A stretch of DNA of 64,000 nucleotides, taken from contig CASESI010000013.1 in assembly GCA_949290705.1 (NCBI GenBank), positions 76,755 to 140,754 on the forward strand, given 5' to 3'. A program made the translations under genes and the position numbers. Position 1 is the stretch's first letter; each line of letters starts with the position of its first letter. Shown here piece after piece: positions 28,535 to 60,769 of this stretch. The DNA is from an uncultured Holosporaceae bacterium. Its GTDB lineage: Bacteria; Pseudomonadota; Alphaproteobacteria; UBA3830; CASESI01. Under the pieces are notes generated by a model, which worked only from the letters and a program-made list of their open reading frames with translations, did not search any database and had not been told where the DNA came from.

Positions 28535-29068
28535 TCATAATTTATCCTTATTGTTTGTTTTTGTGAGATAGTAATCTATATCAGCATACGCTCTATTCAG
28601 CCATCCATTTTCAAAAACTTTCAGTCTATCATTCTTTGTTATAATAATCCTATAATATCCAGCTATTTCGGATTTTAGTGCAGATAATAATATTCCTCCG
28701 TCAATTTTGTTAACTGAATTAATAGTCTTTTCACCAATTATTCCATCTTCACTTAACATTATTCCAGAAGCTCTAACTGCCCTTTGCAGAATTCTTGCCG
28801 CAACTTTAAGACCTGTATTTACTGAAATATCAAACAATTTTATTGCAACCTTAGTATGTATGATTTTATCACATTTATTTTTTAACCAAAAATCTTCATA
28901 GTATATATTTTTAGCCTCTTCTAATGTTAATTGAGTAATATCAATATTTGGATAAGACCTCTCCGAAATACCAAACTTTGTAATACCACCTTTGTCATTT
29001 TTGTCATCAGAAAATCCACCTTCAAATAACAACAAATAATTAAAAGCTTGTTCAAACAATTTATCCAT
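28535..29068 (-). CDS. Glycoside hydrolase family 108 (lysozyme-like) protein with predicted peptidoglycan-binding C-domain
   Basis: N-terminal FNYLLLFEGGFSDDKNDKGGITKFGIS...EEAKNIYYEDFW is the GH108 signature. C-terminal ...GIIGEKTINSVN... resembles PG_binding_3. Confidence 0.8.
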   Translation of the reverse strand: MDKLFEQAFNYLLLFEGGFSDDKNDKGGITKFGISERSYPNIDITQLTLEEAKNIYYEDFWLKNKCDKIIHTKVAIKLFDISVNTGLKVAARILQRAVRASGIMLSEDGIIGEKTINSVNKIDGGILLSALKSEIAGYYRIIITKNDRLKVFENGWLNRAYADIDYYLTKTNNKDKL

Positions 29069-32390: not shown

Positions 32391-32419
32391 TTGATTTTAT
32401 GTACAACACATTGTATAAT
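32391..32419 (+). promoter_or_regulatory. Sigma70-type promoter abutting the M23 peptidase start
   Basis: TTGATT (32391-32396), a 17-nt spacer, then TATAAT (32414-32419). In-frame ATG codons follow at 32421 and 32427. Confidence 0.55.
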
Positions 32420-32420
32420 C

Positions 32421-33539
32421 ATGAGCATGAGGCATGGTATATTACTTTGGAAGGCTAGTATTTCTGTATGTGTTGGAGTGTGCATTTCTGTATTTATTAA
32501 GGAATTTGATCGCGCCGATAATTGTACAGTGGAACAACATCTTTATTCAAATAACGTGATGCTCACAAATGTCACACTAAATAACGAATCTACACCTATA
32601 GTGAGTGATAACGCATCTGCGATTAGTGGCAGTATAGCTACAAACACCAATTCTGACAATATAATAAATATAAATGATGTGTTATCTAACATTAAGTCAA
32701 ATTTGAATGATGATAGATTAAAGAGTTTCGCTGACAATTCTATAGTAAAATTACACAATGATAACATTCTGATATCATTTAAAATACATAACAACTTGTA
32801 CTCCGATGCCAGAAAATGCAAAGTTCCTCAGAAAGTGATTTCAAAAATGATCAATTTGTACAAACATCAGTTGAATTTTAAATCGGATTTAAAAACTGGG
32901 GATATAGTGAAACTTATATACGACAGTAATGATAATCAATTAATTTTTACATCTATCTCCAATTCTAAAAAAACTTATTCTATTTATAGGTATAGCAAAA
33001 ACGGATCAGATCTTGGGTATTATAACGATAAGGGAATATGTCTAAATCAGGACACTTTTCTTACTCCAGTAAAGAATGCTAGAATTTCATCTAGATTTGG
33101 TATGCGTGTACACCCAGTAAAAAAGATTAGAAAAATCCACAAAGGAACAGATTTTGCCGCTAATATTGGTACTCCTATCATGGCTGCAAATTCTGGCAGG
33201 GTAATTCACATAGGTCACAGAGGTGGGTACGGCAAGTGTATAATACTGAGACATACTAACGGATATAAAACGCTTTACGGACATATGTCAAAATATGCTG
33301 ATGGTGTGACCGTAAATAAATCTGTAACAAAAGGAGATGTAATCGGATATGTCGGGAAGAGTGGCTTGGCGACAGGCCCTCATTTACATTTTGAAATCAT
33401 GAAGAATAATGTAAAAATAAATCCTGAAAAAGCCAACTTTATTTCGATTGCTGACTTGACAGCGAAAGAAAAAATACGATTCAATGCGTATAAAAATCGA
33501 ATTCAATCTCAACTTGAAACGTATTCTGCATCATATTAA
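32421..33539 (+). CDS. M23 (LytM-type) peptidoglycan endopeptidase
   Basis: FGMRVHPVKKIRKIHKGTDFAANIGTPIMAANSGRV...GYGKCIILRHTNGYKTLYGHMS...GKSGLATGPHLHFEI carries the HxxxD and HxH M23 motifs. N-terminal TM/signal segment. Start is uncertain (32421 or 32427). Confidence 0.85.
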   Translation: MSMRHGILLWKASISVCVGVCISVFIKEFDRADNCTVEQHLYSNNVMLTNVTLNNESTPIVSDNASAISGSIATNTNSDNIININDVLSNIKSNLNDDRLKSFADNSIVKLHNDNILISFKIHNNLYSDARKCKVPQKVISKMINLYKHQLNFKSDLKTGDIVKLIYDSNDNQLIFTSISNSKKTYSIYRYSKNGSDLGYYNDKGICLNQDTFLTPVKNARISSRFGMRVHPVKKIRKIHKGTDFAANIGTPIMAANSGRVIHIGHRGGYGKCIILRHTNGYKTLYGHMSKYADGVTVNKSVTKGDVIGYVGKSGLATGPHLHFEIMKNNVKINPEKANFISIADLTAKEKIRFNAYKNRIQSQLETYSASY

Positions 33540-36177: not shown

Positions 36178-36663
36178 TCAATTTTTTAGGAAATTATTAA
36201 GTACTTGGTCCATTTCGTTTAGGGTTGAATTTAACGTTTTTGGATTGAATCTATTGTTTATTTTTGATATCGTTTTAATTTGTTTGTCGAATATGCTTTC
36301 TATTTTTGAGAGTAGATCTAGTCCTTTTTTTGATAGCTTTATTAATGATGACCTTTTATCTCTCGTGGACTGAGTTTGTTCAATATATCCTGCATGCACC
36401 AATTTTTTGAGATTATATGATACATTTGAACCTATGTAATATCCCCTTGAAATTAGCTCTGTAATGTAAATTTGATCTCTACCTAGGTTATATAAAATCA
36501 AGCTTTGTATATTATTAATGTCATTAACATTTAAATTCGTAAGTTCTTTTTTTACGACATTTAAAAACACTTTATATAATTTATCGAGCAATAACACTGA
36601 ATTAATGTAAGCTCCTTTTTCACCATCACGTTGAGATTGGATAATGCCAATATTTTTTTTCAT
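36178..36663 (-). CDS. MarR-family transcriptional regulator
   Basis: Winged-helix pattern (NIQSLILYNLGRDQIYITELISRGYYIGSNVSYNLKKLVHAGYIEQTQSTRDKRSSLIKLSKKG). ATG at 36661-36663 is preceded by GAGG. Same strand as the flagellin array and directly downstream of it. Confidence 0.8.
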   Translation of the reverse strand: MKKNIGIIQSQRDGEKGAYINSVLLLDKLYKVFLNVVKKELTNLNVNDINNIQSLILYNLGRDQIYITELISRGYYIGSNVSYNLKKLVHAGYIEQTQSTRDKRSSLIKLSKKGLDLLSKIESIFDKQIKTISKINNRFNPKTLNSTLNEMDQVLNNFLKN

Positions 36664-36759
36664 ATTTACCTCAAAATATAACATTAGTATAACAATTTTT
36701 GGTTAATTTTTAGTTAAAATGATAATTTTTTTTAATATTAAAATAAAATAATAATGTTT

Positions 36760-38349
36760 TTAATTTTGTATAAGCTTCATAAGAACTCTTGCACTATCTT
36801 TTACTTTCATGACAGCTTCTGAACTAATATTTTCCAATACCTCAACTTGCATTAAATCAATTGTTTCATCTTGTACATCTATGTCTTCAATATTACTGAC
36901 TATATAATTAATATTATTTGTAGATAAATTATTTAAATATTCTATGTTTGCAACCTGAGCAAGCATATCTGAAATTGCGGACTTATTATTTGATATATCA
37001 TCAAGTACTCCATCTATCAGTCCTATTATTACATCTTTGTTATACTGCATAAAAAGATCTTCATCAAAATCTCCTCCACTTTCACCAGTATCCAATGCAA
37101 ATAATTTATATTTATCATCATCTAAAACATTAGGTAATTTCTTAAGTAATTGGTCCATATATAAATTTGTTTGATAAAGATAAAGTTTTCTATTTTCAAG
37201 CAATCCAGTCATCACTATTTCATCTCTAACCACTAAGTCATTATCAGGATTTTTATTAAAATACCCTATTAATGCTTCATCACCAAATGTAGTTGAAGAT
37301 ATGACATTTTTTATTGATTTAACTCTTAACATTATTTCATCTTTCAAACTATTCCTAACAGATTCTTTATCCAAATTTTGTTGACCGTTGGATGCTTCGA
37401 CAACCAATGTTCGCAATGATTTCATATCACTTTCTATAATTTCCTCGGCATTGTACAAAGTATCCATCATGGAATTATAATACTCAACTTGCCTATTAGA
37501 CCTTTTTTTATCCTCCAAAATCATTTTCACACTTTTATTATTGAAAAAAACTGTTGTTTCAGATACTGTTTCCAATTGGTTCTCTTGATCGATAATAAGT
37601 TGTTTTGCAGCTTCTATACCTTCTTTCGCATCATTAAATTGATTCCTTACTTCACCTGTAATCCTTTGCATATAATCAAGAACCCGTGACGAATACCTCA
37701 TTGTACCAACATGGTTTATTTTATTCTGATAACTATTAGTTTCTGATCCAAAATTCCCTGGTCTAACATATCTGATATGATTAAGTTTTAAGTACTTGTG
37801 TGCAACATTATTCCACTCTGGTAATATAATAGATATATTTTTATTATATACTCCATCTACTTTAAAACTAAATGTCTGTCGCTTATATCTATTGTTAACT
37901 CGTGGAGTAACTCTTCTGAAATTATTAGAGTATTCTTTTGACGTCAATAAATTATTAACTTCATCAATAATGCCAGGAGCTTTTGTATTATAATTTGTCC
38001 AATGCCCAGGTGTTTTTGCACTAACAGTTGGTATATTGGCAGCAATTGCATTACTCCAACCTAAATTCCATAATTCTTTGTATTTTTCATGCATGTTTGT
38101 CAATACACCTATTATATCATCAAGTTGTTTAATATCTTTATCGATTTTGGCTATCGTATTGTTTTCATCAGCTGTTGTCCCTTGTAATATTGTACTTTTA
38201 GATTCAGTTATAAAAACAGAATCTTTAATCTTCTGACCGGTTTTTCCACTTGCCAAACGTTCAAGAATTTCGCCTTTTTGAATACCATGCGTACGATTAC
38301 TAGTGGTAATTGACGTTACACTTCTTGTACCTATACCTCCTGTAATCAT
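36760..38349 (-). CDS. Flagellin-family protein, short-class paralog 5 (529 aa, enlarged)
   Basis: N-terminal ...KGEILERLASGKTG.KIKDS... and C-terminal IEDIDVQDETIDLMQVEVLENISSEAVMKVKDSARVLMKLIQN are shared with the four genes upstream. Internal SLRTLVVEASNGQQNLDKESVRNSLKDEIMLRVKSIKNVISSTTFGDEALIG resembles a canonical flagellin ND1 segment. Confidence 0.65.
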   Translation of the reverse strand: MITGGIGTRSVTSITTSNRTHGIQKGEILERLASGKTGQKIKDSVFITESKSTILQGTTADENNTIAKIDKDIKQLDDIIGVLTNMHEKYKELWNLGWSNAIAANIPTVSAKTPGHWTNYNTKAPGIIDEVNNLLTSKEYSNNFRRVTPRVNNRYKRQTFSFKVDGVYNKNISIILPEWNNVAHKYLKLNHIRYVRPGNFGSETNSYQNKINHVGTMRYSSRVLDYMQRITGEVRNQFNDAKEGIEAAKQLIIDQENQLETVSETTVFFNNKSVKMILEDKKRSNRQVEYYNSMMDTLYNAEEIIESDMKSLRTLVVEASNGQQNLDKESVRNSLKDEIMLRVKSIKNVISSTTFGDEALIGYFNKNPDNDLVVRDEIVMTGLLENRKLYLYQTNLYMDQLLKKLPNVLDDDKYKLFALDTGESGGDFDEDLFMQYNKDVIIGLIDGVLDDISNNKSAISDMLAQVANIEYLNNLSTNNINYIVSNIEDIDVQDETIDLMQVEVLENISSEAVMKVKDSARVLMKLIQN

Positions 38350-38361
38350 AATTCACCTCTT

Positions 38362-39546
38362 TTATGATTGAATCAACCTTACTATGTATTTTGAACTTTC
38401 TTTTATCTTCACAAGAGCCTCTGAGCTTAACTGTTCCAAAATTTCTTCATTCATCAAATTCATCATCTCTTCCTGCACGTCTGTATCTTCAATAGAGCTC
38501 AATGCAGCTTGAATATTATTCTTTTGAATTGTTAACAATGTTTCAGAATTATCTATGTTCGTTATAGCAGATAGTTCAGCCTGATAATTATTCGCTACAT
38601 TATCAATCGTTGCCGAAATCGCAGCAAGAATATTTGTTCTTGATAAACTATTTTCTCTTACAAAGTCACGAATGGCTTTTACAACATCATTTTTATCACC
38701 ACCAGCCTTAACATTCGTAATAATACCATCTAATTTGTTCTTTAGTTGCGTATCATTCACTGCAGTTTGTGCAGCAGTTTTAGCTTCATTCAAGTCTTGT
38801 GCTTCAGCTGCACCCTTAATTGCGTCTTGGATTTTTTCCATATCAGCATCGGAAATTACGGAAGAATCTTTACTTGCAAATAACTTATACAAATCATCAT
38901 TAGAAAATAAATTTTTTAAATCCGATGTTCCGCCATCGTACCTATTTTCTGTATCATCGTACGTACCACTATAAGCCGTAATATTACTTGCAAAATCTAT
39001 ATTCTTAACAGTTATGTCAAAATCATCATGTGGACTCATTGAAAAGTGTATTGTTTTTGTTAGATTTAAATCATCATTTAACCTATCAGTTTTTTGGAAT
39101 GTTTTTTCCCCAAGGAAATCTGTATTATTTATTGTACTTTCTATCGTATTTATTATAACATTTATCTCCTCTTGTAGAGCTTGCCTGGTTGATTTACCTC
39201 TTATATACTCTTGATCTGTATTTCCGCCATTAATTTTAAAATCTGTCGCAATATCATTAATTTTTGTTTTCAAACTTTCATATTTTTCGCGCAATAACTG
39301 CGTTGTTTCAAGAGCTATTTCCATCCTACTGGAATATTTTGAAATATTTTTAAACAGGTTGTTATACTGACTTATAGAAGTTTTCAGTGTAGAAATATTT
39401 CTAAATTCAGATATACCATCTCTTGGGTGGTTATAATTCTTTCCTGAAGCCAATTTTGTTAATGTCTCTCCTTTCGATTTTGCATTATTTTTATTGCTCT
39501 TCATAATAGAGTTTTGCGATCTGATGCTTACGAATGATATAGCCAT
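38362..39546 (-). CDS. Flagellin-family protein, short-class paralog 4 (394 aa)
   Basis: MAISFVSIRSQNSIM...KGETLTKLASGKNYNHPRDGISEF... aligns to flagellin ND0/ND1. C-terminal IEDTDVQEEMMNLMNEEILEQLSSEALVKIKESSKYIVRLIQS aligns to CD0. GGAGG RBS. Confidence 0.75.
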   Translation of the reverse strand: MAISFVSIRSQNSIMKSNKNNAKSKGETLTKLASGKNYNHPRDGISEFRNISTLKTSISQYNNLFKNISKYSSRMEIALETTQLLREKYESLKTKINDIATDFKINGGNTDQEYIRGKSTRQALQEEINVIINTIESTINNTDFLGEKTFQKTDRLNDDLNLTKTIHFSMSPHDDFDITVKNIDFASNITAYSGTYDDTENRYDGGTSDLKNLFSNDDLYKLFASKDSSVISDADMEKIQDAIKGAAEAQDLNEAKTAAQTAVNDTQLKNKLDGIITNVKAGGDKNDVVKAIRDFVRENSLSRTNILAAISATIDNVANNYQAELSAITNIDNSETLLTIQKNNIQAALSSIEDTDVQEEMMNLMNEEILEQLSSEALVKIKESSKYIVRLIQS

Positions 39547-39582
39547 TTTCTGTTCCTCCTTGTATTTTCATCTTTCATATTA

Positions 39583-40527
39583 CTAATTTTGTACCAACCT
39601 TATTACAAATCTGGCGCTGTCCTTAATTGCCTTTAATGCCTCTGCGCTGAGCTCCTCCAAAATCTGCGCCTGCATCAAATTTACCATTTCTTCTTGAATA
39701 TCAACATCTTCCATAGCGCTTATCGCAGCTTCTGTATTAGCTTTTTTAACATATGATAAATCTTCCATATTACTCAAAGTTTCTATATTGCTGAGTAAAA
39801 TATTATAGTTATTGTACGCCGTCCTTGCCGCCGTTGTTAATGCATCATAAAGTGTAGATTTTTTCATGTGATTTGCAGTTGTACCAGAAAAAGTATTATA
39901 ATTACCTAATTCTCCAGTAGGAGGGGTAGTACCAGCTGCATCGGCTCTATACACCAACTTTTTCAAATTATCCTCCGTAACATTTGTTGTTGTACCAACT
40001 GCAAGTGCGGCCAATGACACATCAAGCTTAACACCATCTCTCTCTGAAATTATCAACTCTATTTTTGTTCCATCTGCATTCACAACATTTTTACCATCAA
40101 GTTTTGTATTAAGTAAATTCTTAATTGCGTCAATAGAGACATTTACGTCATTCTGTAATTGTTGCCTTAATATTTTATTGAATTTCTCTGTATCAGTAGG
40201 AGTTGCAGACCAGCCGCCGATATTAGTTGGTATATCATTAATCTTTATTGCAAGTTTTGTATATTGTTCATAAACCAAATCAACCACAGAAAGCGCCGTC
40301 TCTAATCTACTTTTCGCAAGCTTTATATTTTTAGTAGTTTTTTCATATTCATTCAAATCCTTCCGCATCCTTTGAATGCGTGAAAATTCTTCTATTCCAT
40401 CGCTTGAGTTAAATATTTTCTTTCCAGTAGACAATCGTTTCAACACAGCACCTTTATTCCTTGCGACATTCCGCGAAGTTTGCATTATATTAAGTTGGTC
40501 TCTGATTGGTATAAATGATATAGCCAT
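39583..40527 (-). CDS. Flagellin-family protein, short-class paralog 3 (314 aa)
   Basis: MAISFIPIRDQLNIM...KGAVLKRLSTGKKIFNSSDGIEEF... at the N-terminus. C-terminal MEDVDIQEEMVNLMQAQILEELSAEALKAIKDSARFVIRLVQN. GGAGG RBS. Confidence 0.75.
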   Translation of the reverse strand: MAISFIPIRDQLNIMQTSRNVARNKGAVLKRLSTGKKIFNSSDGIEEFSRIQRMRKDLNEYEKTTKNIKLAKSRLETALSVVDLVYEQYTKLAIKINDIPTNIGGWSATPTDTEKFNKILRQQLQNDVNVSIDAIKNLLNTKLDGKNVVNADGTKIELIISERDGVKLDVSLAALAVGTTTNVTEDNLKKLVYRADAAGTTPPTGELGNYNTFSGTTANHMKKSTLYDALTTAARTAYNNYNILLSNIETLSNMEDLSYVKKANTEAAISAMEDVDIQEEMVNLMQAQILEELSAEALKAIKDSARFVIRLVQN

Positions 40528-40799
40528 CTTTTCCTCCCTGTTTTTAAACCTTAACTACATAAACTACGCCCTTATCAAATTCACAATATATTTCGAACTT
40601 TCTTTAATCTTAATCAAAGCTTCTGAGCTGAGTTCCTCCAGAATCTGCGCCTGCATCAGATTTATCATTTCCTCTTGAACATCAATATCCTCCAAAGCAC
40701 TTATTGCTGCCTCGGTGTTGGTTTTCTGTACCTGCGCCAAAGTGTCAATGTTCGACAAATTCGTAATACCGGAAAGTATTAATCGATAGTTATTGTCTG
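40494..40799. repeat. Tandem repeat copy A: 5' codons of a flagellin gene + intergenic + 3' end of the next flagellin gene
   Basis: Direct comparison with 41538-41842. The 3' coding stretch 40564-40799 vs 41607-41842 differs at about a dozen positions by eye. The intergenic CCATCTTTTCCTCCCTGTTTT(T)AAACCTTAACTACATAAACTACGCCC differs by one T. Confidence 0.85.
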
Positions 40800-41571
40800 T
40801 CTTTGATTTATTTTCTGTAACGTTGTGAATGAAAACATCTATTTGCTTAAATTGACCCTTCCATGGATCTGTTCCACTTGATAAAACTAACTCTACAGTT
40901 TTAATTGTGTTCGCTGCACCAATTGTACTTAATGGTAACAAAGGGCTTTCTGTTACACTAACTGTACCATAATCATTAAGTGCAAATGAAAGGCTACTAT
41001 TTGTTTGATAATTAAAACTTGCAGGCGGGGTGAAAGTTTTTTCTTTCCATTTTTTATTAGTAGCGTCAACTTCTTGTACTTTACTATTTAACATTATATT
41101 TTGCTCTTGTAGGAAGTCAGATTTTCCATTTGTTCTTGTCCCCATCTCAAAAGCAACGGCACTCCCATCAAATTTGGTTTGCAATGTACTATTAATCGTA
41201 TTAATCGTCGCGTTGATTTCCGCTGTGTAATACGCATCATCAGCTGACCCTGCAGGCAATGTTGTAAGGCTTTTAACTTCATTTAATTGCTTTAACAAAG
41301 TATCATATTGTTCACCCAAGGATTGCTGAACCGAAAGCGCAGTCTCAAGTTGGCTTATCCCAAGTGAAACATCCTTTATTGCTCTTGCATACGAATCAAG
41401 GGATGTACGCATATTTGAAATCTTTCTGTAATCCGCAACATCATCTCTTGGATCGGCAACCTTTTTTCCCGTCGCAAGTCTTTTCAAAACTTGTCCCTTG
41501 TTCTCCGCACTTGACCTGTTTCCTGTGATCACTCTTGCTTGGTCTCTGACCGGTATAAATGATATAGCCAT
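40564..41571 (-). CDS. Flagellin-family protein, short-class paralog 2 (335 aa)
   Basis: MAISFIPVRDQARVITGNRSSAENKGQVLKRLATGKKVADPRDDVADYRKISNMRTSL...LGISQLETAL aligns to flagellin ...ERLSSGLRINSAKDDAAG...GIS.AQT.EGAL. C-terminal LEDIDVQEEMINLMQAQILEELSSEALIKIKESSKYIVNLIRA. Confidence 0.8.
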   Translation of the reverse strand: MAISFIPVRDQARVITGNRSSAENKGQVLKRLATGKKVADPRDDVADYRKISNMRTSLDSYARAIKDVSLGISQLETALSVQQSLGEQYDTLLKQLNEVKSLTTLPAGSADDAYYTAEINATINTINSTLQTKFDGSAVAFEMGTRTNGKSDFLQEQNIMLNSKVQEVDATNKKWKEKTFTPPASFNYQTNSSLSFALNDYGTVSVTESPLLPLSTIGAANTIKTVELVLSSGTDPWKGQFKQIDVFIHNVTENKSKTDNNYRLILSGITNLSNIDTLAQVQKTNTEAAISALEDIDVQEEMINLMQAQILEELSSEALIKIKESSKYIVNLIRA

Positions 41572-41842
41572 CTTTTCCTCCCTGTTTTAAACCTTAACTA
41601 CATAAACTACGCCCTTATCAAATTCACAATATATTTCGAACTTTCTTTAATCTTAATCAACGCTTCTGAGCTGAGTTCCTCCAGAATCTGCGCCTGCATC
41701 AGATTTATCATTTCCTCTTGGACATCGATATCCTCCAAAGCACTTATCGCAGCCTCGGTGTTGGTTTTTTGCACCTGCGCCAAAGTGTCAATATTCGACA
41801 AATTCGTAATACCGGAAAGTATTAACCGATAATTGTTGTCTG
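41538..41842. repeat. Tandem repeat copy B (partner of 40494-40799)
   Basis: See copy A. In addition, 41393-41571 and 42253-42431 (the 5' coding ends of the two genes) are highly similar. Confidence 0.85.
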
Positions 41843-42431
41843 CTTTCGTCACGTTACCTGTTGCATGAACTATTGCATTGCCCTCTACAGCAGTTTTTAA
41901 ATCATTCCAAGCGGTATACGTATAAAACTCATTAAATTGAGTCGTTGTGACAGTTGTATCATTGTAATCCTTAATTTTCACTGTTAATACTTGATTACCT
42001 GGGGTTGCCGCGCTAGACACAACAGTTTCATTATTAAATTTTGTGGCAAGAGTACTATTAATTGCAGCAATTGTGCCATTAACACTATTTAAATAATAGG
42101 TTTGATTGGTATTTGTTGTATTTTTATTTTCTTTGGCTTCTTCAAGCTGTTTTCCAAGTGTTGTATACAACTCCATCAAACTCTGTGTTACGGAAAGCGC
42201 TGTTTCAAATTTGCTTATTCCGAACGAAACTTCTTTTATCGCATTTTTATATGAATCAAGCGATGTACGCATGTTCGAAATCTTTCTATAATCCGCAACA
42301 TCATCTCTTGGATCGGCAACCTTTTTTCCCGTCGCAAGTCTTTTCAAAACACGACCTTTATTTTCCGCACTTGATCTGTTTCCTGCGATCACTCTTGCTT
42401 GGTCTCTGACCGGTATAAATGATATAGCCAT
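41607..42431 (-). CDS. Flagellin-family protein, short-class paralog 1 (274 aa)
   Basis: N- and C-terminal regions are nearly identical to the 335-aa paralog but the central region differs. Start taken at MAISF (ATG 42429-42431), since the GGAGG RBS lies within the 4 extra codons of the track ORF. Confidence 0.8.
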   Translation of the reverse strand: MAISFIPVRDQARVIAGNRSSAENKGRVLKRLATGKKVADPRDDVADYRKISNMRTSLDSYKNAIKEVSFGISKFETALSVTQSLMELYTTLGKQLEEAKENKNTTNTNQTYYLNSVNGTIAAINSTLATKFNNETVVSSAATPGNQVLTVKIKDYNDTTVTTTQFNEFYTYTAWNDLKTAVEGNAIVHATGNVTKADNNYRLILSGITNLSNIDTLAQVQKTNTEAAISALEDIDVQEEMINLMQAQILEELSSEALIKIKESSKYIVNLIRA

Positions 42432-42511
42432 CTTTTCCTCCATGTTTTAAGCTATCTTCTAATACTAGAAAAAAAACAAAACTACAGAGAAAAAACACTA
42501 CAAATGAAAAA

Positions 42512-45034
42512 CTAAAATAATTTTAATAAATTTTGTTTTGCCTTAAGTTCACGTGAAAGTGATTCTATTGCAGCAGATTGTTGTAATTCGAATTGCGACA
42601 AATTCACCATTTCTGAAGGAATATCCAAATCGAATATCGCACTTGCAGCCAATTGTGCATTTTTTACAGTATTTGCAAGGTTATCTATTGTCTTTTCAAC
42701 ACGATTTTGTGCAACCGCAATGTCAGCAACCCTCATAAGAACAGCTTCCAATATTCCATCAAGACGGTCTTTTGTTCTAGGGACATTATCCCTGGTTTTA
42801 ATTTCAAAATCATCCTTATCCATTCCTAACCTTGCAGAAGTCACGGCTTCAATCCTGACAGAAATCCTATCAAAATCCTCTTCCGAAGCACCAACCTTGA
42901 AAACCAAATCTATGCTGTCCGAATGATTTGCAAATGTAATAGATGTATTTTTCAGTTCATTCAGTGTAATAACTTTCGTATTATCAGGAATTTTTTTCAT
43001 AGCATCTTTGTAAGATATGGTACTATTTTCCGAAATTTCAATTTTCATTACAAGTGTATCTATTCTATCTACACCCTTCTTATTGAAATGTCTTTTGAAT
43101 GTTATTTCGTGTATTCCTTGACCAAGTCTCTTCTCAGCCAACCCATCATCATCTTTTAATGTATAATCATGTTCATTGTTAGTTATATTGTAATCAAACT
43201 CTGACTCAAACCTACTTCCATCTTCAGCCTCTAGGTATAATTTTGATTTACCAAAAGTTCCTGACATCTTTACGTCAAAAGACTTTAAATCTGTAAGATT
43301 TCCACTCAAAGAAGTAATATATGGTGATGGAACTTGAATATTTTTCATTTTCACTTTCACATCAGATTGATTTTGCAATCTTACTGTCTTTCCTTTTTCG
43401 TACACATACCCGTCCCCATCAACATCATATTTATTATTAAATTCTGTAAGATTTGTTGTTATAAGAGTCGATACTTCATCTTTCCTGGTTATTGCACCAT
43501 TTTTCGGCTTATAAACCATATTGTTGCGGTCAAGTTCAATATCACTACTAATAGTAAATTGTGCATTAACAGCAGCGCCTGTTCCACCACTTGTTTGTAA
43601 TTTATTTACATGTGCTGTATCAGATTTATCATATACATATCCGTCTTTATCCAGAATATGTTGTACAGGATCAAATGTAAATGTTCCACTTGTAGCATCA
43701 CCTACTATTCTATTAGCGCCATTTTTAAGCGTATACGAAGATTTATCTAAATCCTCCTCAACCTCTATCTTAATTTCAACACCATTATTCGCTTGATACC
43801 TAACATTTCCAGTAGACGTACCATTTTCACCATCACCTTTCAGGTATACATATCCATCATTTGCAACATAAAATTTACCATCTGGCTTTAATGTATCCGT
43901 GGTATTCATAATTTGATACGAACCATCTATATTCTGCACAGGAACCACTTTTCTTTCATTATTTACCATACGGATCGTAATACCATTTCCATCATCATTT
44001 AACTTATTGATGTATTTATTATTTCCTGTATCCCAAGTTAATAATTTTCCAGTATCATAATCTATGTAATCAGGGTGATTAGGAGTTGTATTTAAATCTA
44101 AACCGTATACACCACCGTCTGCTCCAAGATATTTTCCTGTTTTTTCATCAGTTAATGGTTCTCTCAAAATCATTGGATTTATAGAAAATTTGCCATTCGC
44201 AGAATTAATATCATAATTAACATTCAATAAAGCATTATTTTCGTTTGTCTGTGAAAGTTTATCTGCATACTTCATACCAAAGCTTTTTGTTTTATCAAAA
44301 TATGAGTTCAGCGATATATTGAGTTTCATTTGATGGAATCTGTACTTTTCCGTTTTTCCATCTTCTATATCCTTTTCATCAAGAACAACATATTCAGATT
44401 CTCCTGTATTAACACTTATAGCTGTTAACTTTTTCGTTTCGGCATCATATTCAAATCTTGTACCACCTGAAACTGAATCACTGTCAAAAGTAATATTTTG
44501 TATTCCTCCTCCAAATGTGCGTTCACTACTTAAAAAACCTTCTCTCAATGATACATCATCCGGATCAGCCGGATCAATTTCACCAAATTTATCACTTTCT
44601 ATAGTAATACTTCCAGACAACAAATGCATGTTGTTGAATTCCGTAGTTTTTGCAATTCTATCTATTTCATCACGTGAATCGAGAAACTCCTTATTAATTT
44701 TTTCTCTATCACTATCTGACAATTGCTCTCCTGCAGCTTGTTCAGCAAGTGTACGCATTCTTGTAATCAACGCTGTAATACTTGATAATGCGGAATCAGC
44801 GACATCAAGTGTAGAATTTATTTGAGTCGAAGAGATTAATACCTGGTTTATAGACTGCATCTTCATCTTTAACTTCGTTCCGATTGCAGCATCAGCAACA
44901 GCATCAGAGGCCTTTTCAACACGCAAGGCAGAAGATATTTTTCTCAACGAATCCGATCTTCTTACTTCTGACAACCCTATGTGCTTAATAGAGCTTATCG
45001 ATCCTCTTCCCTCTGAAAATCCTACATTTCTCAT
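42512..45034 (-). CDS. Giant flagellin (840 aa)
   Basis: The canonical N-domain is LRKISSALRVEKASDAVADAAIGTKLKMKMQSINQ...DVADSALSSITALITRMRTLAEQAAGEQLSDSDREKINKEFLDSRDEIDRIAKTTEFNNMHLLSG. The C-domain is ...VAQNRVEKTIDNLANTVKNAQLAASAIFDLDIPSEMVNLSQFELQQSAAIESLSRELKAKQNLLKLF. A large central insert lies between them. AGAGG RBS. Confidence 0.85.
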   Translation of the reverse strand: MRNVGFSEGRGSISSIKHIGLSEVRRSDSLRKISSALRVEKASDAVADAAIGTKLKMKMQSINQVLISSTQINSTLDVADSALSSITALITRMRTLAEQAAGEQLSDSDREKINKEFLDSRDEIDRIAKTTEFNNMHLLSGSITIESDKFGEIDPADPDDVSLREGFLSSERTFGGGIQNITFDSDSVSGGTRFEYDAETKKLTAISVNTGESEYVVLDEKDIEDGKTEKYRFHQMKLNISLNSYFDKTKSFGMKYADKLSQTNENNALLNVNYDINSANGKFSINPMILREPLTDEKTGKYLGADGGVYGLDLNTTPNHPDYIDYDTGKLLTWDTGNNKYINKLNDDGNGITIRMVNNERKVVPVQNIDGSYQIMNTTDTLKPDGKFYVANDGYVYLKGDGENGTSTGNVRYQANNGVEIKIEVEEDLDKSSYTLKNGANRIVGDATSGTFTFDPVQHILDKDGYVYDKSDTAHVNKLQTSGGTGAAVNAQFTISSDIELDRNNMVYKPKNGAITRKDEVSTLITTNLTEFNNKYDVDGDGYVYEKGKTVRLQNQSDVKVKMKNIQVPSPYITSLSGNLTDLKSFDVKMSGTFGKSKLYLEAEDGSRFESEFDYNITNNEHDYTLKDDDGLAEKRLGQGIHEITFKRHFNKKGVDRIDTLVMKIEISENSTISYKDAMKKIPDNTKVITLNELKNTSITFANHSDSIDLVFKVGASEEDFDRISVRIEAVTSARLGMDKDDFEIKTRDNVPRTKDRLDGILEAVLMRVADIAVAQNRVEKTIDNLANTVKNAQLAASAIFDLDIPSEMVNLSQFELQQSAAIESLSRELKAKQNLLKLF

Positions 45035-45060
45035 TTCTTGTTACCTCTTTTTGTATTCAT

Positions 45061-45076
45061 TGCAATTTACGTGCCA
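45061..45076 (-). promoter_or_regulatory. Sigma54 (-24/-12) promoter of the 840-aa flagellin gene
   Basis: The minus strand reads TGGCAC-GTAAA-TTGCA, an exact match to the TGGCAC-N5-TTGCW consensus. The -12 element lies about 27 nt upstream of the ATG, leaving room for a short leader with the AGAGG RBS. Confidence 0.75.
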
Positions 45077-45182
45077 AACTTACACTAAATTACTAATTTT
45101 TTTAACTTTCATAAACATATCCTAAAACTAGTAAATCTTTTATTAACATTGCAAAAAAAATAATAAAAATACAAAAATAAAA

Positions 45183-47621
45183 CTAAAACAACTTTAATAA
45201 GTTTTGTTTAGACCTCATTTCACGAGACAAAACCTCAATTGACGATTGCTCCATCATTTCACTTTGAGAAAGTTCAACCATTTCTTCTGGAATATCAAGG
45301 TCGAATATAGCACTTACAGCTGCCTGCGAGTTAGTGATTGATGTCTGAATATTAGAGTCAGCAACATTAAGTCTGTTATCTCCAACAGCAACTTTCGAAC
45401 GCACTGATTGTACTGTATCAATAGCTGTTCTTATTGTCTCTATTATCTTTTGCAATGATTCTTGATCATCACTGAGTTCTACTTTTAAATTTGTTTTATT
45501 ATCTACCAATTGTAATCTAAATGCGGTAATAGAATCTATTGTAACTTTAACAGAGTTCTCATCTCCACCTCCTGTTCCAACTTGGAAAGATAAGTCCGTC
45601 TTATCACTTGATTCTTGATACGCAACAACGGTATTCTTAAGCTCATTCAATGATACAAATACATTATTGTTAAAATATCCTGAATCTACAAATGGATTTG
45701 TACCAGCCGCGTCAGCAGCCATCTGCCCTACATTTGCCATAGCCAGGTTTTTTGGAGCATCTGCATCTGTCAATTTGGCAGCTTCTATTATTCCGCCAGT
45801 TTTCATTTTATTCAAATCAATTGTGATAGCATCAACTCTTTGGCCGTTTGTCATTGTCCTCGATAACGTTACACGTCCTCTTTCAAGTCGATTTTTCGCT
45901 ACATAAGAACTAGTATTCTCGTTGTAATCTATATCTGTAAGATTAAAATAATCCGATTCTAAAACTCCATCTGCAGCCTCCATATATAATTTAGCCATAC
46001 CATTTGTTCCTTTTATCTTTACATCAAAAGAAGTCAAATCTGTTAAATTACCAGAAATTCTAGCAACATCAACATTATTAGTTTTTTTATTATTTAATTT
46101 CAATTGAACTGTAGAATTAGGATCACCGTCTATTGTTGTAATTTTTTTGCCTGACTTGTCATAGACATACCCATCGTCACCTATAATATCTGTGCTTTTT
46201 AATTTGTACGATCCACCTTTTAGCACAACTGCATTTCCGTCAACATCTTTTTCAATTGATTGTTTATCATAATCGATTCCAAATGTTCCATTTTCATACG
46301 TAGCCGCATCCAGTTTAAATGTACCTGTTATTGTAACCTCAACACCGTTTGCATCACCATTTCCATTAAGACTAGATGCAGCTTCAAATGTCACTATTCC
46401 ATCTTTTGAATAATCTGTAATTTTAAATAATTTCAAATCATTCAATTGTGTTACTGTATCAGCACCAGCAATACTAGCTTTAACTTTTATTTCAGTAATA
46501 GTAACTCCTTGCCCACCTAACTCATTATTAAATGCCTCCAACTCAGTTGTTGAAAAAATATCACCGTTTGCTTTGCCCGCTATTCCTATAGATTTACCAG
46601 GAACTCCTAATCCAAGTGCTAATTTAATATCATTTAAAGCTGTCCTACCATCTGCTGTATTATTATCTATTGAGTCTGTTGTGTTCGTAGGAAGAATAAT
46701 CTCAGTTCCTCTTGCATCACCATCAACTTTAACTTTTCCAGCCGTAAGTTTTGGTTTAAACAACTCTTCTCCAATTACAGAAGCATTATCAATCAACTTA
46801 TCACTAATAGAATTTATAAGTTCAATATTTTTCTTGTTATTTTGATTGTATTGTGGATCCATCATTAATGCCGTATCTGTTCCAATTGACATCCCCTTAT
46901 CAAAATTATTATTTAATTTTACAGTAATACCAAATTTACTGAAATTTAAACTTTCCAAATCTCCAGATTTAATGTCATCTGATGCAACTTTCATTTCATC
47001 AAAACTCGACCTGTCATTAAGGTTTGTTATTCTGAACAATCTTGTTTCTTGATTATAACTTAAAGTATACGCCGTATTGGACTTTGAATTATCAATTGCG
47101 ATTGCCTCAATACCTTGTCCATCTTTTGATAAAAATCCATCCCTTAAATCATCCCCATTAATAGTTTCTGAAAATGTATCTGTAATAACTTTTTGTGTAC
47201 CTGATAATAACTGTTTTGAGTTAAAGTTTGTAGCTTTTGCTATACGATCAATTTCATCTATTAAAGCTACGAACTCTTGGTTAATTTTTGCAATATCTTC
47301 AGCTTTGTAAATTCCATTTTTTGCAGACATTGCAAGTGTATTCATACGGGTTAATGTTTTCGTAATTTCCCCCAAACCACCCTCGGCAATATCCAATGCC
47401 GCCTTTGCCTGAGCAGTTCCAACTAATAATTGTTTTAAAGAATCAACTTCAACTTTTAATTTCGTACCAATAGCAGAATCAGCAACAGCATCTGAAGCTT
47501 TCCTAATTTTTAATGATGATGATATTTTAGAAATCGAAGTCGTTCTCGTAGTTTCCGACTTTTGAATCTGGGTCAACGTATTTAACGCACCAGTTCCTTT
47601 TGAAAATGATATAATAGCCAT
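45183..47621 (-). CDS. Giant flagellin (812 aa)
   Basis: The N-domain is MAIISFSKGTGALNT...ISKISSSLKIRKASDAVADSAIGTKLKVEVDSLKQ...IAEGGLGEITKTLTRMNTLAMSAKNGIYKAEDIAKINQEFVALIDEIDRIAKATNFNSKQLLSG. The C-terminus is AIFDLDIPEEMVELSQSEMMEQSSIEVLSREMRSKQNLLKLF. GGAGG RBS. Confidence 0.85.
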   Translation of the reverse strand: MAIISFSKGTGALNTLTQIQKSETTRTTSISKISSSLKIRKASDAVADSAIGTKLKVEVDSLKQLLVGTAQAKAALDIAEGGLGEITKTLTRMNTLAMSAKNGIYKAEDIAKINQEFVALIDEIDRIAKATNFNSKQLLSGTQKVITDTFSETINGDDLRDGFLSKDGQGIEAIAIDNSKSNTAYTLSYNQETRLFRITNLNDRSSFDEMKVASDDIKSGDLESLNFSKFGITVKLNNNFDKGMSIGTDTALMMDPQYNQNNKKNIELINSISDKLIDNASVIGEELFKPKLTAGKVKVDGDARGTEIILPTNTTDSIDNNTADGRTALNDIKLALGLGVPGKSIGIAGKANGDIFSTTELEAFNNELGGQGVTITEIKVKASIAGADTVTQLNDLKLFKITDYSKDGIVTFEAASSLNGNGDANGVEVTITGTFKLDAATYENGTFGIDYDKQSIEKDVDGNAVVLKGGSYKLKSTDIIGDDGYVYDKSGKKITTIDGDPNSTVQLKLNNKKTNNVDVARISGNLTDLTSFDVKIKGTNGMAKLYMEAADGVLESDYFNLTDIDYNENTSSYVAKNRLERGRVTLSRTMTNGQRVDAITIDLNKMKTGGIIEAAKLTDADAPKNLAMANVGQMAADAAGTNPFVDSGYFNNNVFVSLNELKNTVVAYQESSDKTDLSFQVGTGGGDENSVKVTIDSITAFRLQLVDNKTNLKVELSDDQESLQKIIETIRTAIDTVQSVRSKVAVGDNRLNVADSNIQTSITNSQAAVSAIFDLDIPEEMVELSQSEMMEQSSIEVLSREMRSKQNLLKLF

Positions 47622-47808
47622 AATTTTCCTCCATGTAAATTAAATAACAGCAAAATAACCGCTAATAAAAATTCGGAAAAACTATGAAACAACAAGAATA
47701 ACATGTGAAGATTTTTACAAATCTCCAAACTCTAGATATCATAATAGCAAATAAAGGTAAAAAATGAATTAATTAAAATAAATATTTTTAGATAAATTTG
47801 GATATTTT

Positions 47809-48615
47809 TTATATTCCTAAAGATTTTATTCTGTATTCTAATAATTTTTGTTCCTTTTCATTTTGTGCTTTTAATTCCTCTCTGCACTTTTCTATATGCT
47901 CATTCCATAATTTCTGCGCTGTTTCTTGATCAGAAGCAATTATATTATTTATCAAAGCTCGTGAACTTATTTCAAAATGCATAAAATCCATAGGCTGCCT
48001 CCAATAACCTCCCCACCTGTTGAATCCATATTTTTTAAAGATTTTTGCATGAAATTCGTTTGTCATTCCTGGTCTATGCACTAATCGGTTGACAAAAGCA
48101 TCATCACTTTCTTTTTCCTGCATAATATATTTTTGCACAAATAATTCCATTTTATCACTTGGAATCGTAGTGGTACATTCCAATAAATCTTCTGCAATGT
48201 CATCAATTGCCATTCCCCTCATATCGGGAGTCATTTTGTTATTAATGATATCGGCATGAGGATTCATATAATAATTAACATCAATCGCTGCACCATATGC
48301 ATGTTTAGAAAGAGTGTTTGTTCCTGCTATATTCCTACCGTTGTAACAACTTGTACAATATATCGGAAGCTCATCCACTCCCTCTAGCAATGATAATTCT
48401 TCAAAAATACTTTTGACACTATCAACAGATGTGTCCAACACACGTATTTTTAAAGTTGAAAATTTTGCTTCTTGTATACCTTCAAAATTACGTACAGGAA
48501 TTTCAACATCAACTATTTTATGCTCGCCTAAACTTGTTACATAAGCCTTGTTATCACATCTAAAGCTGCATACCACAAGCATTAAATGTAAAAAAATTAT
48601 ATTAAAAAATTTCAT
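47809..48615 (-). CDS. M15-family (VanY/LAS-type) peptidoglycan metallopeptidase with signal peptide
   Basis: LSKHAYGAAIDVN (SxHxxGxAxD) and ...PMDFMHFEIS (DxMHFE) are typical of zinc D-Ala-D-Ala carboxypeptidase-like M15 enzymes. Start taken at MKFFNIIFLHLMLVVC (ATG 48613-48615). Confidence 0.7.
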   Translation of the reverse strand: MKFFNIIFLHLMLVVCSFRCDNKAYVTSLGEHKIVDVEIPVRNFEGIQEAKFSTLKIRVLDTSVDSVKSIFEELSLLEGVDELPIYCTSCYNGRNIAGTNTLSKHAYGAAIDVNYYMNPHADIINNKMTPDMRGMAIDDIAEDLLECTTTIPSDKMELFVQKYIMQEKESDDAFVNRLVHRPGMTNEFHAKIFKKYGFNRWGGYWRQPMDFMHFEISSRALINNIIASDQETAQKLWNEHIEKCREELKAQNEKEQKLLEYRIKSLGI

Positions 48616-48680
48616 ATATCGTTTCTCATTACATATAATACTATACATAACAACCAGAAAAATATCAATACAAAACACAA

Positions 48681-48868: not shown

Positions 48869-50191
48869 ATGTCATTAGAAAACCTATTGAAGAAAATTCC
48901 ATACAGCGTACAATGGCACGATGGAATGCTTTTATCAAGCCAACATTTCCAAACTTTTGACCATTACCATAATTCTTTATGCACGCTAATTGGCAGGTGT
49001 GCTAATTCTTTCGATTACGGAATATTAAGATTAAAAATAGATGAATCAGCTTTGGTATCAGGAACAATTATAATTAATGAAATCCTAGGAATTCTTGATG
49101 ACGGTACAATTTTAAATTACAATTCTGAATATGAAAATTACAAACTTGAATATAATATTTCGGAACACATAAAAAATATTAACAAAACTAAAATATATTT
49201 ATGTGTGTTAAAACATACACATGGAAATAATAACTTTGAACAAAATCTTCCAAGATATTTCTCGATATTGAATGAGGATATCAAAGATGAAAATACAGGA
49301 GAAAATCCAATTAATATTCCTTCCAAAAAACCAAAATTTCTATTAATGTCAGAAAGTGAACTATCTGATAAATTCTCATACCTTCCATTGATAGAAATCA
49401 CTAAAAAAGATAACGTTTTATCTAAAACTGACTTTATCTCTCCTTATATTAAATTAACTAACGAGTGTCCTTTATATGAACTTTTATCTAATATTGTGAA
49501 ATCATCTAAACAAAAAATAGGGTATATTTTAAGTAAAAAAAACCTAGCCAAAGATAATTATATAATAGACTCCGCATTAAGGATATTAGTTGCTTATTCT
49601 ATAACGATAGAATCGTTGTTAAATACTCAATTCATATCGCCATTTGAAATTTACAAAGTAACTCTTGAATTTGCAGCACAGCTATTAGGATTTTCAGTAT
49701 CAAACATCGTTCCTATATTACCAAGTTATAATCATCTAGATAGTATGAATTGCTTTAAAAAATTAGAAGAACACATAGATAAATCCTTGAACCAAATTAT
49801 TGAATTTTCTTCAGCAATACCATTCATATTAGAAGAAAATATATTTAAATTAAAGCTTATAAAAGACTGGGATTCAAAGAAAGAACTTATTATAGGAATA
49901 AAAAGATCTGATAAATCCACTCAAGATGAATTTATTACATGGGTAAATGGTGCTCAGATAGTTTCAGAATCAATGATAGACGATATCAAACAAAAACGTG
50001 TACTTGGTGCAAATAGGAATGCGGTCAGTTCGTATGATTTAGGATTTGAGAATATTCAAGAGAATCTCATTGTATTAAAAATAACAACTGACTCGCATTA
50101 TATAAAGTTTGGAGAAAATCTATGCATATTTAATAGCTCTTTTACAATTTTACCAGATGAAATAGTGTTTTTCCAAAAAGAAAGTACATGA
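48869..50191 (+). CDS. tssK: T6SS baseplate protein TssK (ImpJ/VasE)
   Basis: The N-terminus IPYSVQWHDGMLLSSQHFQTFDHYH matches the TssK signature (V.W.EGM.L.PQHFQQ.DRY). 440 aa. Followed by tssL-tssM. Confidence 0.85.
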   Translation: MSLENLLKKIPYSVQWHDGMLLSSQHFQTFDHYHNSLCTLIGRCANSFDYGILRLKIDESALVSGTIIINEILGILDDGTILNYNSEYENYKLEYNISEHIKNINKTKIYLCVLKHTHGNNNFEQNLPRYFSILNEDIKDENTGENPINIPSKKPKFLLMSESELSDKFSYLPLIEITKKDNVLSKTDFISPYIKLTNECPLYELLSNIVKSSKQKIGYILSKKNLAKDNYIIDSALRILVAYSITIESLLNTQFISPFEIYKVTLEFAAQLLGFSVSNIVPILPSYNHLDSMNCFKKLEEHIDKSLNQIIEFSSAIPFILEENIFKLKLIKDWDSKKELIIGIKRSDKSTQDEFITWVNGAQIVSESMIDDIKQKRVLGANRNAVSSYDLGFENIQENLIVLKITTDSHYIKFGENLCIFNSSFTILPDEIVFFQKEST

Positions 50192-50199
50192 GGTGTTAA

Positions 50200-50937
50200 A
50201 TGGAATTTTTAAATTACTCGACTTCTGATATTTTTGATAACTTTATAGAGATTTTAAGTGAACAAAAATCCATAGCTATAAAATCTAATGATAATAATGC
50301 TGAAATAATTGCATCACAAATAATAAAAAAATTATCTGATTTCATCAGCTCAATTAATTACTCCCTTAATCAAGACAATTTAAACTTAAACAATAACTCA
50401 CTATATGATTTGGAATATGCCCTTGTTGCATTATCTGACGAAGTATTTTTAAACCTCCAATGGAAGGGTAATGAATTCTGGAAAGCCAACTTACTTGAAA
50501 CTAAATTTTCAAAAACTCAATCAGCAGGCGACACTATTTTTGATAAGATCGATACGATACTAAATCGTAAAAATTTCTTATCCGTAGAAAATGCAATTAT
50601 TTATCTAAAATTATTAGCATTGGGATTTCAAGGAAAATATAGAAACACAAATTCATATCAAAAAATTAATGACTATAAACATAAATTATATCTTTTTATT
50701 ACCTCTAATACATCTGGAATAAATCCAGGCGATATGATATTCCCGGATGGGTACAAATATACACTAACTGGACTACCCAAGATTTTTACTCCTAATGAAT
50801 ACTCAATAGATCACATCTTCTATACAATAATTGTATTATTCGTAATTGGAACAGGAATTTTTTGGGAATATGAACATATAAAATTACAAGAAGTAATAAA
50901 CCTCTTAGATTCGACAAATGGTGATAAAAATGAGTAG
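50200..50937 (+). CDS. tssL: T6SS membrane complex protein TssL (DotU/ImpK family)
   Basis: DotU-like core: YALVALSDEVFLNLQWKGNEFWKANLLETKF...IIYLKLLALGFQGKYRN. Single C-terminal TM (IFYTIIVLFVIGTGIFW). GAGG RBS. Confidence 0.8.
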   Translation: MEFLNYSTSDIFDNFIEILSEQKSIAIKSNDNNAEIIASQIIKKLSDFISSINYSLNQDNLNLNNNSLYDLEYALVALSDEVFLNLQWKGNEFWKANLLETKFSKTQSAGDTIFDKIDTILNRKNFLSVENAIIYLKLLALGFQGKYRNTNSYQKINDYKHKLYLFITSNTSGINPGDMIFPDGYKYTLTGLPKIFTPNEYSIDHIFYTIIVLFVIGTGIFWEYEHIKLQEVINLLDSTNGDKNE

Positions 50938-59588: not shown

Positions 59589-59599
59589 TCTTTTTAATT

Positions 59600-60202: not shown

Positions 60203-60266
60203 ATTAAGTATTTTTTAACCTTTTTATTATATTATAAATATTACAAATTGTAATGGAGAAAAATTT

Positions 60267-60704: not shown

Positions 60705-60727
60705 TATCATGCAAACTTTCTTAATTT

Positions 60728-60769
60728 CACAATTTTTATGGAATACCTGTAAAGATTGTGCTCTTTTTA
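60728..60769 (+). terminator. Putative intrinsic terminator after the phasin gene
   Basis: CACAATTTTTA (60728-60738) pairs with TAAAGATTGTG (60750-60760), an 11-bp stem with one mismatch and an 11-nt loop. It is followed by CTCTTTTTA. The stem is AT-rich and therefore weak. Confidence 0.4.

Follow-up and report, generated by a model that had tools for sequence, protein, structure and literature searches.

Two divergent flagellin families in one conserved seven-gene array of an AT-rich, probably alphaproteobacterial genome

Filaments built from several flagellins, and tandem arrays of the genes encoding them, have precedent in bacteria (PMC7591256, PMC4823718, PMC6299084). In Caulobacter crescentus the paralogs FljJ-O lie in tandem loci apart from the apparatus genes, and one of them has a specialised, regulatory role (PMC7591256). 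Bradyrhizobium diazoefficiens carries four tandem 68-kDa flagellins for its subpolar flagella (FliC1-4) and two tandem 34-kDa flagellins for its lateral ones (LafA1-2) (PMC4823718). Flagellins of >800 amino acids (aa) have been termed "large" and those of >1000 aa "giant", and large inserts have evolved in numerous lineages, Alphaproteobacteria among them (PMC6248924). Here we describe an array of seven successive, co-oriented flagellin-family genes, F1 to F7 in order of transcription, on the minus strand at 36760-47621 of a 64,000-nucleotide (nt) stretch of contig CASESI010000013.1 (hereafter the window; it is the reverse complement of ENA ERZ16268146 scaffold_118), in which two very different families stand side by side. 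In Alphaproteobacteria it is normal for flagellin loci to be located away from the genes of the apparatus, and sigma-54-dependent flagellin promoters are established for Caulobacter fljK and fljL. Multi-flagellin arrays, large flagellins, sigma-54 flagellin promoters and hypervariable central domains are all well known already; what is new is a lineage-restricted flagellin subfamily, the fact that it shares one conserved array with near-canonical large flagellins, and the architecture of F7. Nothing that we found points to a new biological principle.

Similarly to the Caulobacter genes, the array is a tandem set away from apparatus genes, and the short, D0/D1-dominated Caulobacter flagellins are the best structural matches to a model of F4. 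Unlike the Caulobacter flagellins, which are ~270 aa long and mutually similar, it comprises two families with at most 26% N-terminal identity, members of 812-840 aa and one of 529 aa that has two ND1-like regions, and neither flaF nor flbT was found in the window, in the 10 kb past each of its ends or around an eighth, solitary flagellin gene described below. B. diazoefficiens, likewise an alphaproteobacterium with tandem flagellins of two size classes, keeps those classes at different loci as two complete systems, whereas here they form one contiguous array. F1, F2 and the solitary paralog share with the large and giant flagellins a canonical D0/D1 core and a very large central insert without a known domain, but here a second, short family occupies the same array. 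As in the FlaB-FlaA flagellins of Helicobacter and Campylobacter and in Vibrio FlaA versus FlaB-E, a single gene (F2) has a -24/-12 promoter that its neighbors do not; in those sigma-54/sigma-28 pairs, however, the partners are close paralogs, and no sigma-28-type promoter was recognized by eye upstream of the genes described here. FlgL, a protein of the hook-filament junction, finally has the N- and C-terminal helical domains of flagellins and matches F1-F6 weakly, but flagellin matches are consistently better for F1-F5, and five junction-protein paralogs would be unprecedented.

All seven products are flagellin-superfamily axial proteins, free of cysteine and with conserved D0/D1 termini. 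The first-pass annotation of this DNA had proposed seven flagellin-family genes of two structural classes; the open reading frames (ORFs) bear out their orientation, positions and sizes (Table 1), and Pfam, profile and profile-profile comparisons together place all seven in the family and in two deeply different classes. N-terminal motifs of the form RL[AS][ST]GK or ISS[AS]L..KASDAVAD and a C-terminal D[IL]D[VI][QP]EEM..L[MS]Q recur among the proteins, and the MAI(I)SF start that had been attributed to six genes is present in five (F1, F3-F6). The mechanically called ORF of F3 begins 12 nt further upstream, at an ATG within the Shine-Dalgarno sequence; homology and the spacing of the ribosome-binding site (RBS) support the MAISF start of the 274-aa product as the real one. 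Not one cysteine occurs among the 3,498 residues of F1-F7, with 37.5 expected at the 1.07% frequency of the 44 other ORFs of the window (Poisson P 5e-17), which fits export as an unfolded flagellar substrate. Absence of cysteine is usual among flagellins and is supportive rather than strictly defining.

The Pfam comparison that the first-pass annotation had suggested as a check divides the genes three ways. F1 (Flagellin_N 81.9, Flagellin_C 45.4 bits), F2 (74.4 and 40.7) and F3 (27.3 and 28.8) exceed both gathering thresholds, which are 26.6 bits for Flagellin_N (PF00669) and 23 bits for Flagellin_C (PF00700). F4 (28.1), F5 (28.6) and F6 (30.2) pass for Flagellin_C and fall short for Flagellin_N (23.6, 26.0 and 25.5 bits, respectively), and F7 falls short for both, at 19.0 bits over an internal stretch only and 13.2 bits. 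Among NCBIfam models, only those for flagellin and FlgL matched F1-F7, all far under their equivalog cut-offs. FlgL was rejected as an identity on these grounds (TIGR02550, cut-off 127.2 bits; F1 46.6, F2 41.0, F3 14.7, F4 17.6, F5 23.4 and F6 22.8 bits, with no match for F7). So was flagellinolysin (NF033876, cut-off 205 bits), whose matches reach only 31.7 and 29.8 bits and are confined to the ND1 helix, leaving the central HExxH metallopeptidase domain of that family unmatched; F1 contains no histidine residue at all.

The two large proteins, F1 and F2, share 30% identity when compared end to end. Their profile retrieves flagellins among solved structures at E 8e-34 through both the N- and C-terminal domains, and the central ~570 residues had no match among solved structures. 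The eighth flagellin, of 951-975 aa and 53-59% identical to F1, stands alone between holC and ssb-gyrA; it was found together with the array in four samples and in both lineages discussed below, and it is therefore probably encoded in the same genome. "Giant", the earlier label for F1 and F2, does not apply to any of the three, all of which are shorter than 1000 aa and belong to the "large" class as defined in the literature (PMC6248924). Near the solitary gene lies one for hydroxymethylglutaryl-CoA (HMG-CoA) synthase of the mevalonate pathway (L022 2927-4093). HMG-CoA synthase is unusual in a proteobacterium.

By sequence comparison, F3-F6 constitute a small, isolated and lineage-restricted flagellin subfamily that current Pfam and NCBIfam models scarcely detect. 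A word-based search of 5.8 billion proteins returned 32 short-class clusters, every one metagenomic, and when the short-class profile was run exhaustively over 1.84 billion representatives, 11 matches had E<=1e-30 and 17 had E<=1e-10. Canonical flagellins start only at ~55 bits (E ~5e-10), compared with 190-450 bits inside the family. In profile-profile alignment (hhalign), only 39 C-terminal columns of the large and short classes align, at 93% probability; compared pairwise, members of the two classes are 16-26% identical in their first 100 residues and 28-38% identical in their last 80. The strong divergence asserted for the short class in the first-pass annotation is thus confirmed by both the alignment and the bit scores. 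The two classes nevertheless have derived C-terminal traits in common, namely the D-[IL]-D-[VI]-[QP]-E-E-M motif and loss of the AQAN motif. A scan of GTDB representative genomes with the short-class alignment produced 307 pattern matches and no relative, and a scan of JGI metagenome contigs with the same alignment found nothing, although JGI contigs bearing the array are known by another route.

Divergence notwithstanding, the fold of the short class looks conventional. Every solved structure that its profile matches is a flagellin (best E 2.6e-7), and the alignments cover N- and C-terminal regions that include ND1. The AlphaFold2 (AF2) model of F4, with a predicted local distance difference test (pLDDT) score of 68.7, places helices at residues 8-33, 45-101, 110-130 and 243-334, corresponding to ND0, two ND1 helices and one long CD1/CD0 helix, and so predicts an ordinary D0/D1 flagellin architecture. 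Foldseek ranks the Caulobacter FljN/K/M/L filaments first for this model (E 1e-6, template modelling score 0.64-0.67 on the target); FlgL (hook-filament-junction) chains rank lower, and the "cell-surface flagellin" 3k8v is also among the matches.

F7 differs from the other members. It belongs to a family of only four clusters, and its place among the flagellins follows from similarity to F3-F6, not from Pfam: in separate hhalign alignments to the short-class profile, residues 1-138 correspond to short-class positions 1-133 (95.6% probability, E 1e-8) and residues 286-529 to positions 66-329 (99% probability, E 3e-18). On this evidence F7 is a flagellin paralog in which two separate regions align to ND1, with ~150 residues of unassigned fold between them; "two ND1-like regions" denotes these two alignments. 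Internal duplication was considered as an origin, and a direct comparison of the middle region with the C-terminal half was negative. With a pLDDT of 55, the AF2 model of F7 is too poor for its fold to be assigned; Foldseek matched it best to flagellins, at E >= 0.06, and no FlgK or FliD domain was matched in Pfam.

To assess conservation of the locus, we compared it with a second lineage represented in JGI metagenomes (3300029305, 3300031555 and 3300032167). The order is retained there as tssKLM, M15 peptidase, two large flagellins, three short ones (one F5-type and two F3/F4-type), an F6-type, an F7-type, MarR and rpmG. Retention of the seven-gene set and its flanks in a lineage whose array proteins are only 30-66% identical indicates that the genes are functional. 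Selection was measured against a close strain (L018). The ratio of nonsynonymous to synonymous substitution rates (dN/dS) at the termini of F1, F2, F3 and F6 is 0-0.05 (0.03 in F3, with dN ~0 at the termini of F1 and F6), and the centers of F1 (0.76), F3 (0.93) and F6 (0.89) are nearly neutral. F2 and F5 are constrained throughout (dN/dS 0.09 and 0.17) and are 99% and 97% identical in the close strain, where the center of F4 has been wholly replaced; constraint on F7 is relaxed (dN/dS 0.58). Conserved termini combined with variable centers are the classic signature of surface-exposed filament subunits.

Between F3 and F4, the 3' ends are 96% identical in nucleotide sequence over 258 nt that include the intergenic spacer (40542-40799 and 41585-41842) and the 5' ends 89% identical over 261 nt (41330-41590 and 42190-42450), while the centers are unrelated. 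GC content at third codon positions in these two genes is 0.33-0.345, compared with 0.228 +/- 0.035 in other genes, and no other type has as many 90%-identity clusters as the F3/F4 type. Collectively, the near-identical ends, raised third-position GC and number of clusters point to termini that undergo gene conversion and central cassettes that are exchanged.

Expression signals differ along the array. The site upstream of F2, TGGCACGTAAATTGC, is the sole perfect match to the sigma-54 consensus TGGCAC-N5-TTGC in 64 kb, where 0.07 would be expected, and it is kept at the same position in the related contigs L005/L006 and L018, the divergent lineage included, with differing adjacent bases. A block that lies 20-80 nt further upstream is near-invariant between lineages and may be an enhancer or a site for integration host factor (IHF). 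By analogy with the Helicobacter, Campylobacter and Vibrio genes, a sigma-54 promoter on F2 only suggests that incorporation is staged or ordered in space. About 5.7 kb past window position 1 lies the gene for a response regulator that has a sigma-54-interaction domain (L013 16335-17702, minus strand); we dropped this protein as support for the promoter, since it lacks GAFTGA and looks like NtrX. NtrX-like regulators without GAFTGA are typical of alphaproteobacteria.

The 43-nt F1 leader does not differ at all (100% identity) between lineages in which the F1 proteins share 66%; a structured RNA was sought in it, and no significant fold was obtained (z-score -1.0). The motif ACA(T/G)GGAGGAAAA is common to the start sites of F1, F3, F4 and F5 and presumably resembles a CsrA-binding site (ACARGGA). 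Spacing from F1 to F7 is 148, 80, 35, 36, 36 and 12 nt, so that the 12-36 nt noted earlier for the short genes are real, as are the strong RBSs, with the qualification that GGAGG precedes five of the seven genes (F1, F3-F6) and AGAGGT the other two (F2 and F7). A consensus scan predicted no minus-strand terminator within the array or between F1 and the MarR-family gene downstream of F7, which is possibly the last gene of the F3-F7 transcription unit. Consensus scans for sigma-70 promoters and terminators showed no enrichment.

Taken together, these data are best explained by an ordinary function in an unusual configuration. It is likely that F1-F7 belong to the flagellar filament family and are made and exported in that capacity; the fuller statement, that the locus is a flagellin gene cluster whose two families enter one composite flagellum, is the account towards which we lean, if only somewhat. 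The proteins would be exported unfolded via a flagellar type III apparatus encoded elsewhere and would polymerize on the hook. Expression would have three parts, with F1 under its own promoter and invariant leader, F2 driven by the sigma-54 promoter with its conserved upstream element, and F3-F7, perhaps together with the MarR gene, read as a single unit. The two families would most likely be laid down as successive or mixed segments, like the multi-flagellin filaments of Caulobacter, Helicobacter and Vibrio. Invariant F2 and F5 would hold fixed structural positions; the variable-center proteins F1, F3, F4 and F6 would form the exposed bulk, diversified by recombination and selection; and F7, which has two ND1-like regions and whose gene is last in the array and evolves fastest, would be a specialized minor component.

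Several observations weigh against one composite flagellum. In the ~100 kb of contigs that could be read (the window and ~35 kb of additional flanks, covering 10 kb past each end and the eighth-flagellin locus), no flagellar apparatus genes, fliS, fliD or flgK/flgL were present, and neither rpoN nor a competent sigma-54 activator was found. F4-F6 lie under the Flagellin_N threshold and F7 under both. Co-transcription of F3-F7 is inferred from spacing only. Identity between the two families is low enough that assembly into a single filament is not assured, and it is lower than is known of flagellins that share one filament. The lack of hook, basal-body, cap and fliS genes in 64 kb, which the first-pass annotation had singled out as unusual, stands as an observation but says little, because separate flagellin loci are normal in Alphaproteobacteria.

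The low inter-family identity would be expected if one flagellar system were built from the large class (F1 and F2, with the solitary paralog of 951 aa) and another from the short class, for example polar and lateral flagella. The classes are as far from each other as from unrelated flagellins (39 aligned columns, 16-26% N-terminal identity), the upstream regions of F1, F2 and the F3-F7 block all differ, and the same split occurs in B. diazoefficiens (PMC4823718). In known cases, however, the two sets occupy separate loci and the lateral set sits in its own flagellar cluster (PMC4823718), whereas here one array holds both, away from any apparatus gene; a second apparatus of 40-50 genes would also be less parsimonious in a gene-dense, AT-rich genome, and both classes have the derived C-terminal traits in common. 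We regard two separate systems as unlikely.

An accessory role for some short-class genes appears similarly improbable. Here F6, F7 or both would be junction or terminal proteins (analogues of FlgL/FlgK or of a cap adaptor), or one gene would be a regulator like Caulobacter FljJ, rather than all being bulk subunits. The F6-type and F7-type genes are single-copy and fixed in position in both lineages, the best NCBIfam match of F6 is FlgL (though at 22.8 bits only), FlgL chains occur among the Foldseek matches, and no flgK or flgL was seen nearby. F7 has an atypical architecture, a weak RBS and relaxed constraint (dN/dS 0.58; 30% inter-lineage identity), and in Caulobacter five structural flagellins are accompanied by one regulatory flagellin (PMC7591256). 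Against such a role, all seven proteins score far below the FlgL cut-off (<=46.6 versus 127.2 bits), the solved structures matched by short-class sequence are all flagellins with zero FlgL, F7 has no FlgK or FliD domain match, and the near-neutral center of F6 (dN/dS 0.89) is unexpected in a junction protein buried at the hook.

More speculatively, F3-F7 could build a distinct flagellin-derived fiber, or a layered or segmented filament with a new architecture, in a Holosporales-like symbiont, with F7 as a new axial adaptor and with host interaction (adhesion, invasion, secretion) as much as swimming for its purpose; we consider this doubtful. The first-pass annotation had likewise suggested that the short class might not form a segment of a conventional filament but another structure, a suggestion for which no positive evidence emerged: the D0/D1 model of F4, the flagellin-only matches, the absence of cysteine and the classic pattern of selection all speak for an ordinary subunit.

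Why many bacteria keep several flagellins is only partly understood, and nature offers an extreme example in this locus: two families almost unrelated in their polymerization domains occur in one conserved array, and its five ortholog types each have their own evolutionary regime (invariant, variable-center, cassette-swapped, fast-evolving). If both families share one filament, the locus offers a test of the D0/D1 divergence that filament packing can tolerate; should they not share one, a compact symbiont-like bacterium keeps two types of filament. With the short family and F7, flagellin sequence space gains a clade that Pfam and NCBIfam models hardly pick up, which matters for the annotation of motility in uncultured gut symbionts.

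Table 1. The flagellin array, its signals and its neighbors. Positions are those of the window unless a contig is named; identity is to the ortholog or orthologs of the second (JGI) lineage.
Feature	Position	Strand	Description	Identity
F1	45183-47621	-	large flagellin, 812 aa; own upstream region	66%
F2	42512-45034	-	large flagellin, 840 aa; conserved over whole length	63%
F3	41607-42431	-	short-class flagellin, 274 aa; in short-class alignment	42-52% (F3/F4)
F4	40564-41571	-	short-class flagellin, 335 aa; center varies by strain	42-52% (F3/F4)
F5	39583-40527	-	short-class flagellin, 314 aa; conserved type	45%
F6	38362-39546	-	short-class flagellin, 394 aa; conserved ortholog type	59-60%
F7	36760-38349	-	derived flagellin paralog, 529 aa; two ND1-aligning regions	30% (ortholog of 538 aa)
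Solitary flagellin	L022 5583-8438 (ERZ16268256 scaffold_2)		also in L023, L024 and L025	
F1 leader and translation-initiation region	47622-47664	-	43 nt; contains ACATGGAGGAAAA	
Sigma-54 (-24/-12) promoter	45062-45076	-	TGGCACGTAAATTGC; 27 nt upstream of the F2 start codon	
Conserved block	45097-45159	-	candidate enhancer or IHF site; near-invariant between lineages, function inferred	
MarR-family regulator	36178-36684	-	Pfam HTH_27 and MarR_2; 75 nt downstream of F7; same place in both lineages	
M15_4 peptidase gene	47809-48678		between tssK and F1; peptidoglycan peptidase	
tssK/L/M	48869-54940		divergently transcribed; only the M15 gene and tRNA-Val separate it from the array	
tssB/C	22774-25124		11.6 kb from the array; unrelated, mostly housekeeping genes between	

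The array adjoins genes of a type VI secretion system (T6SS), and the earlier phrase "sandwiched between two T6SS sub-loci" holds for tssKLM, which is adjacent; for the more distant tssBC it is loose wording. The ORF that follows tssC (25138-25686) matched neither Hcp nor any other family. On its other flank the array is bordered by the MarR gene, rpmG, a biotin-ligase-family gene, further housekeeping genes and topA. This housekeeping flank is as well conserved as the T6SS flank, which suggests that the adjacency is inherited gene order, and beyond that conserved order we found no evidence of a functional T6SS link. We know of no flagellin-fold T6SS substrate. A use outside motility, in which the seven proteins would be adhesins, host-interaction factors or decoys delivered by a reduced flagellar export apparatus or tied to the T6SS, is very unlikely: the array does adjoin tssKLM and the M15 peptidase gene in both lineages, apparatus genes have not been seen so far, 3k8v is among the Foldseek matches, and the gene content resembles that of Holosporales-type symbionts, in which flagella have been proposed as an extra, conditionally expressed secretion system (PMC11909080), but general conservation of gene order explains the adjacency, Pfam and NCBIfam revealed no hallmark of a T6SS effector in any of the seven, and conserved polymerization termini (dN ~0) argue for filament assembly.

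The uncultured bacterium that carries the array is AT-rich and, to judge from gene content, probably an alphaproteobacterium; it is known only from gut-type metagenomes. GC content in 2-kb segments of the window is 0.25-0.37, and ORFs cover nearly all of it. As a lead, the combination of CpaD, an NtrX-like regulator without GAFTGA, split PntAB, polyhydroxyalkanoate (PHA) genes, a T6SS, flagellar genes and ~30% GC fits published descriptions of Holosporales-type symbionts (PMC11724238, PMC11909080). Scanning GTDB representative genomes with the TopA of the window returned two distant Bacteroidota matches only.

A 301-aa P-loop GTPase is encoded at 56664-57569 on the plus strand, 9 kb from the array. 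The first-pass annotation had called it an orphan flhF; this identity could not be established, as the protein scores 52.9 bits over ~85 residues with TIGR03499 (cut-off 174) and 17.7 bits with SRP54 (threshold 22.7), and no solved-structure relative of it was found. In related contigs the gene is kept beside pepA and phaC, and PHA genes follow it in the window at 57765-62053. Tad/Flp-pilus and type IV pilus/type II secretion system (T2SS) genes are scattered at 375-4181, 16966-18874 and 62065-63949 and at 10626-13326 of contig L013, with housekeeping genes between them; the set includes cpaA, cpaB, a secretin gene, cpaD, cpaE, cpaF, tadB/C-like genes and an extra T2SS-F/E pair. Besides the M15 enzyme, peptidoglycan hydrolases are encoded in the 64 kb at 28535-29068, 32391-33539 and 11278-11883 (a GH108 lysozyme with a peptidoglycan-binding domain, an M23 peptidase and an SLT-like transglycosylase). 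Finally, the mechanically called, TTG-started ORFs of ruvX (12380-13318, minus strand) and mfd (12540-15866, plus strand) overlap by ~780 nt; since the RuvX domain occupies only residues 178-307 of 312, ruvX probably begins well downstream of the called start, and the overlap is an artefact of ORF calling.

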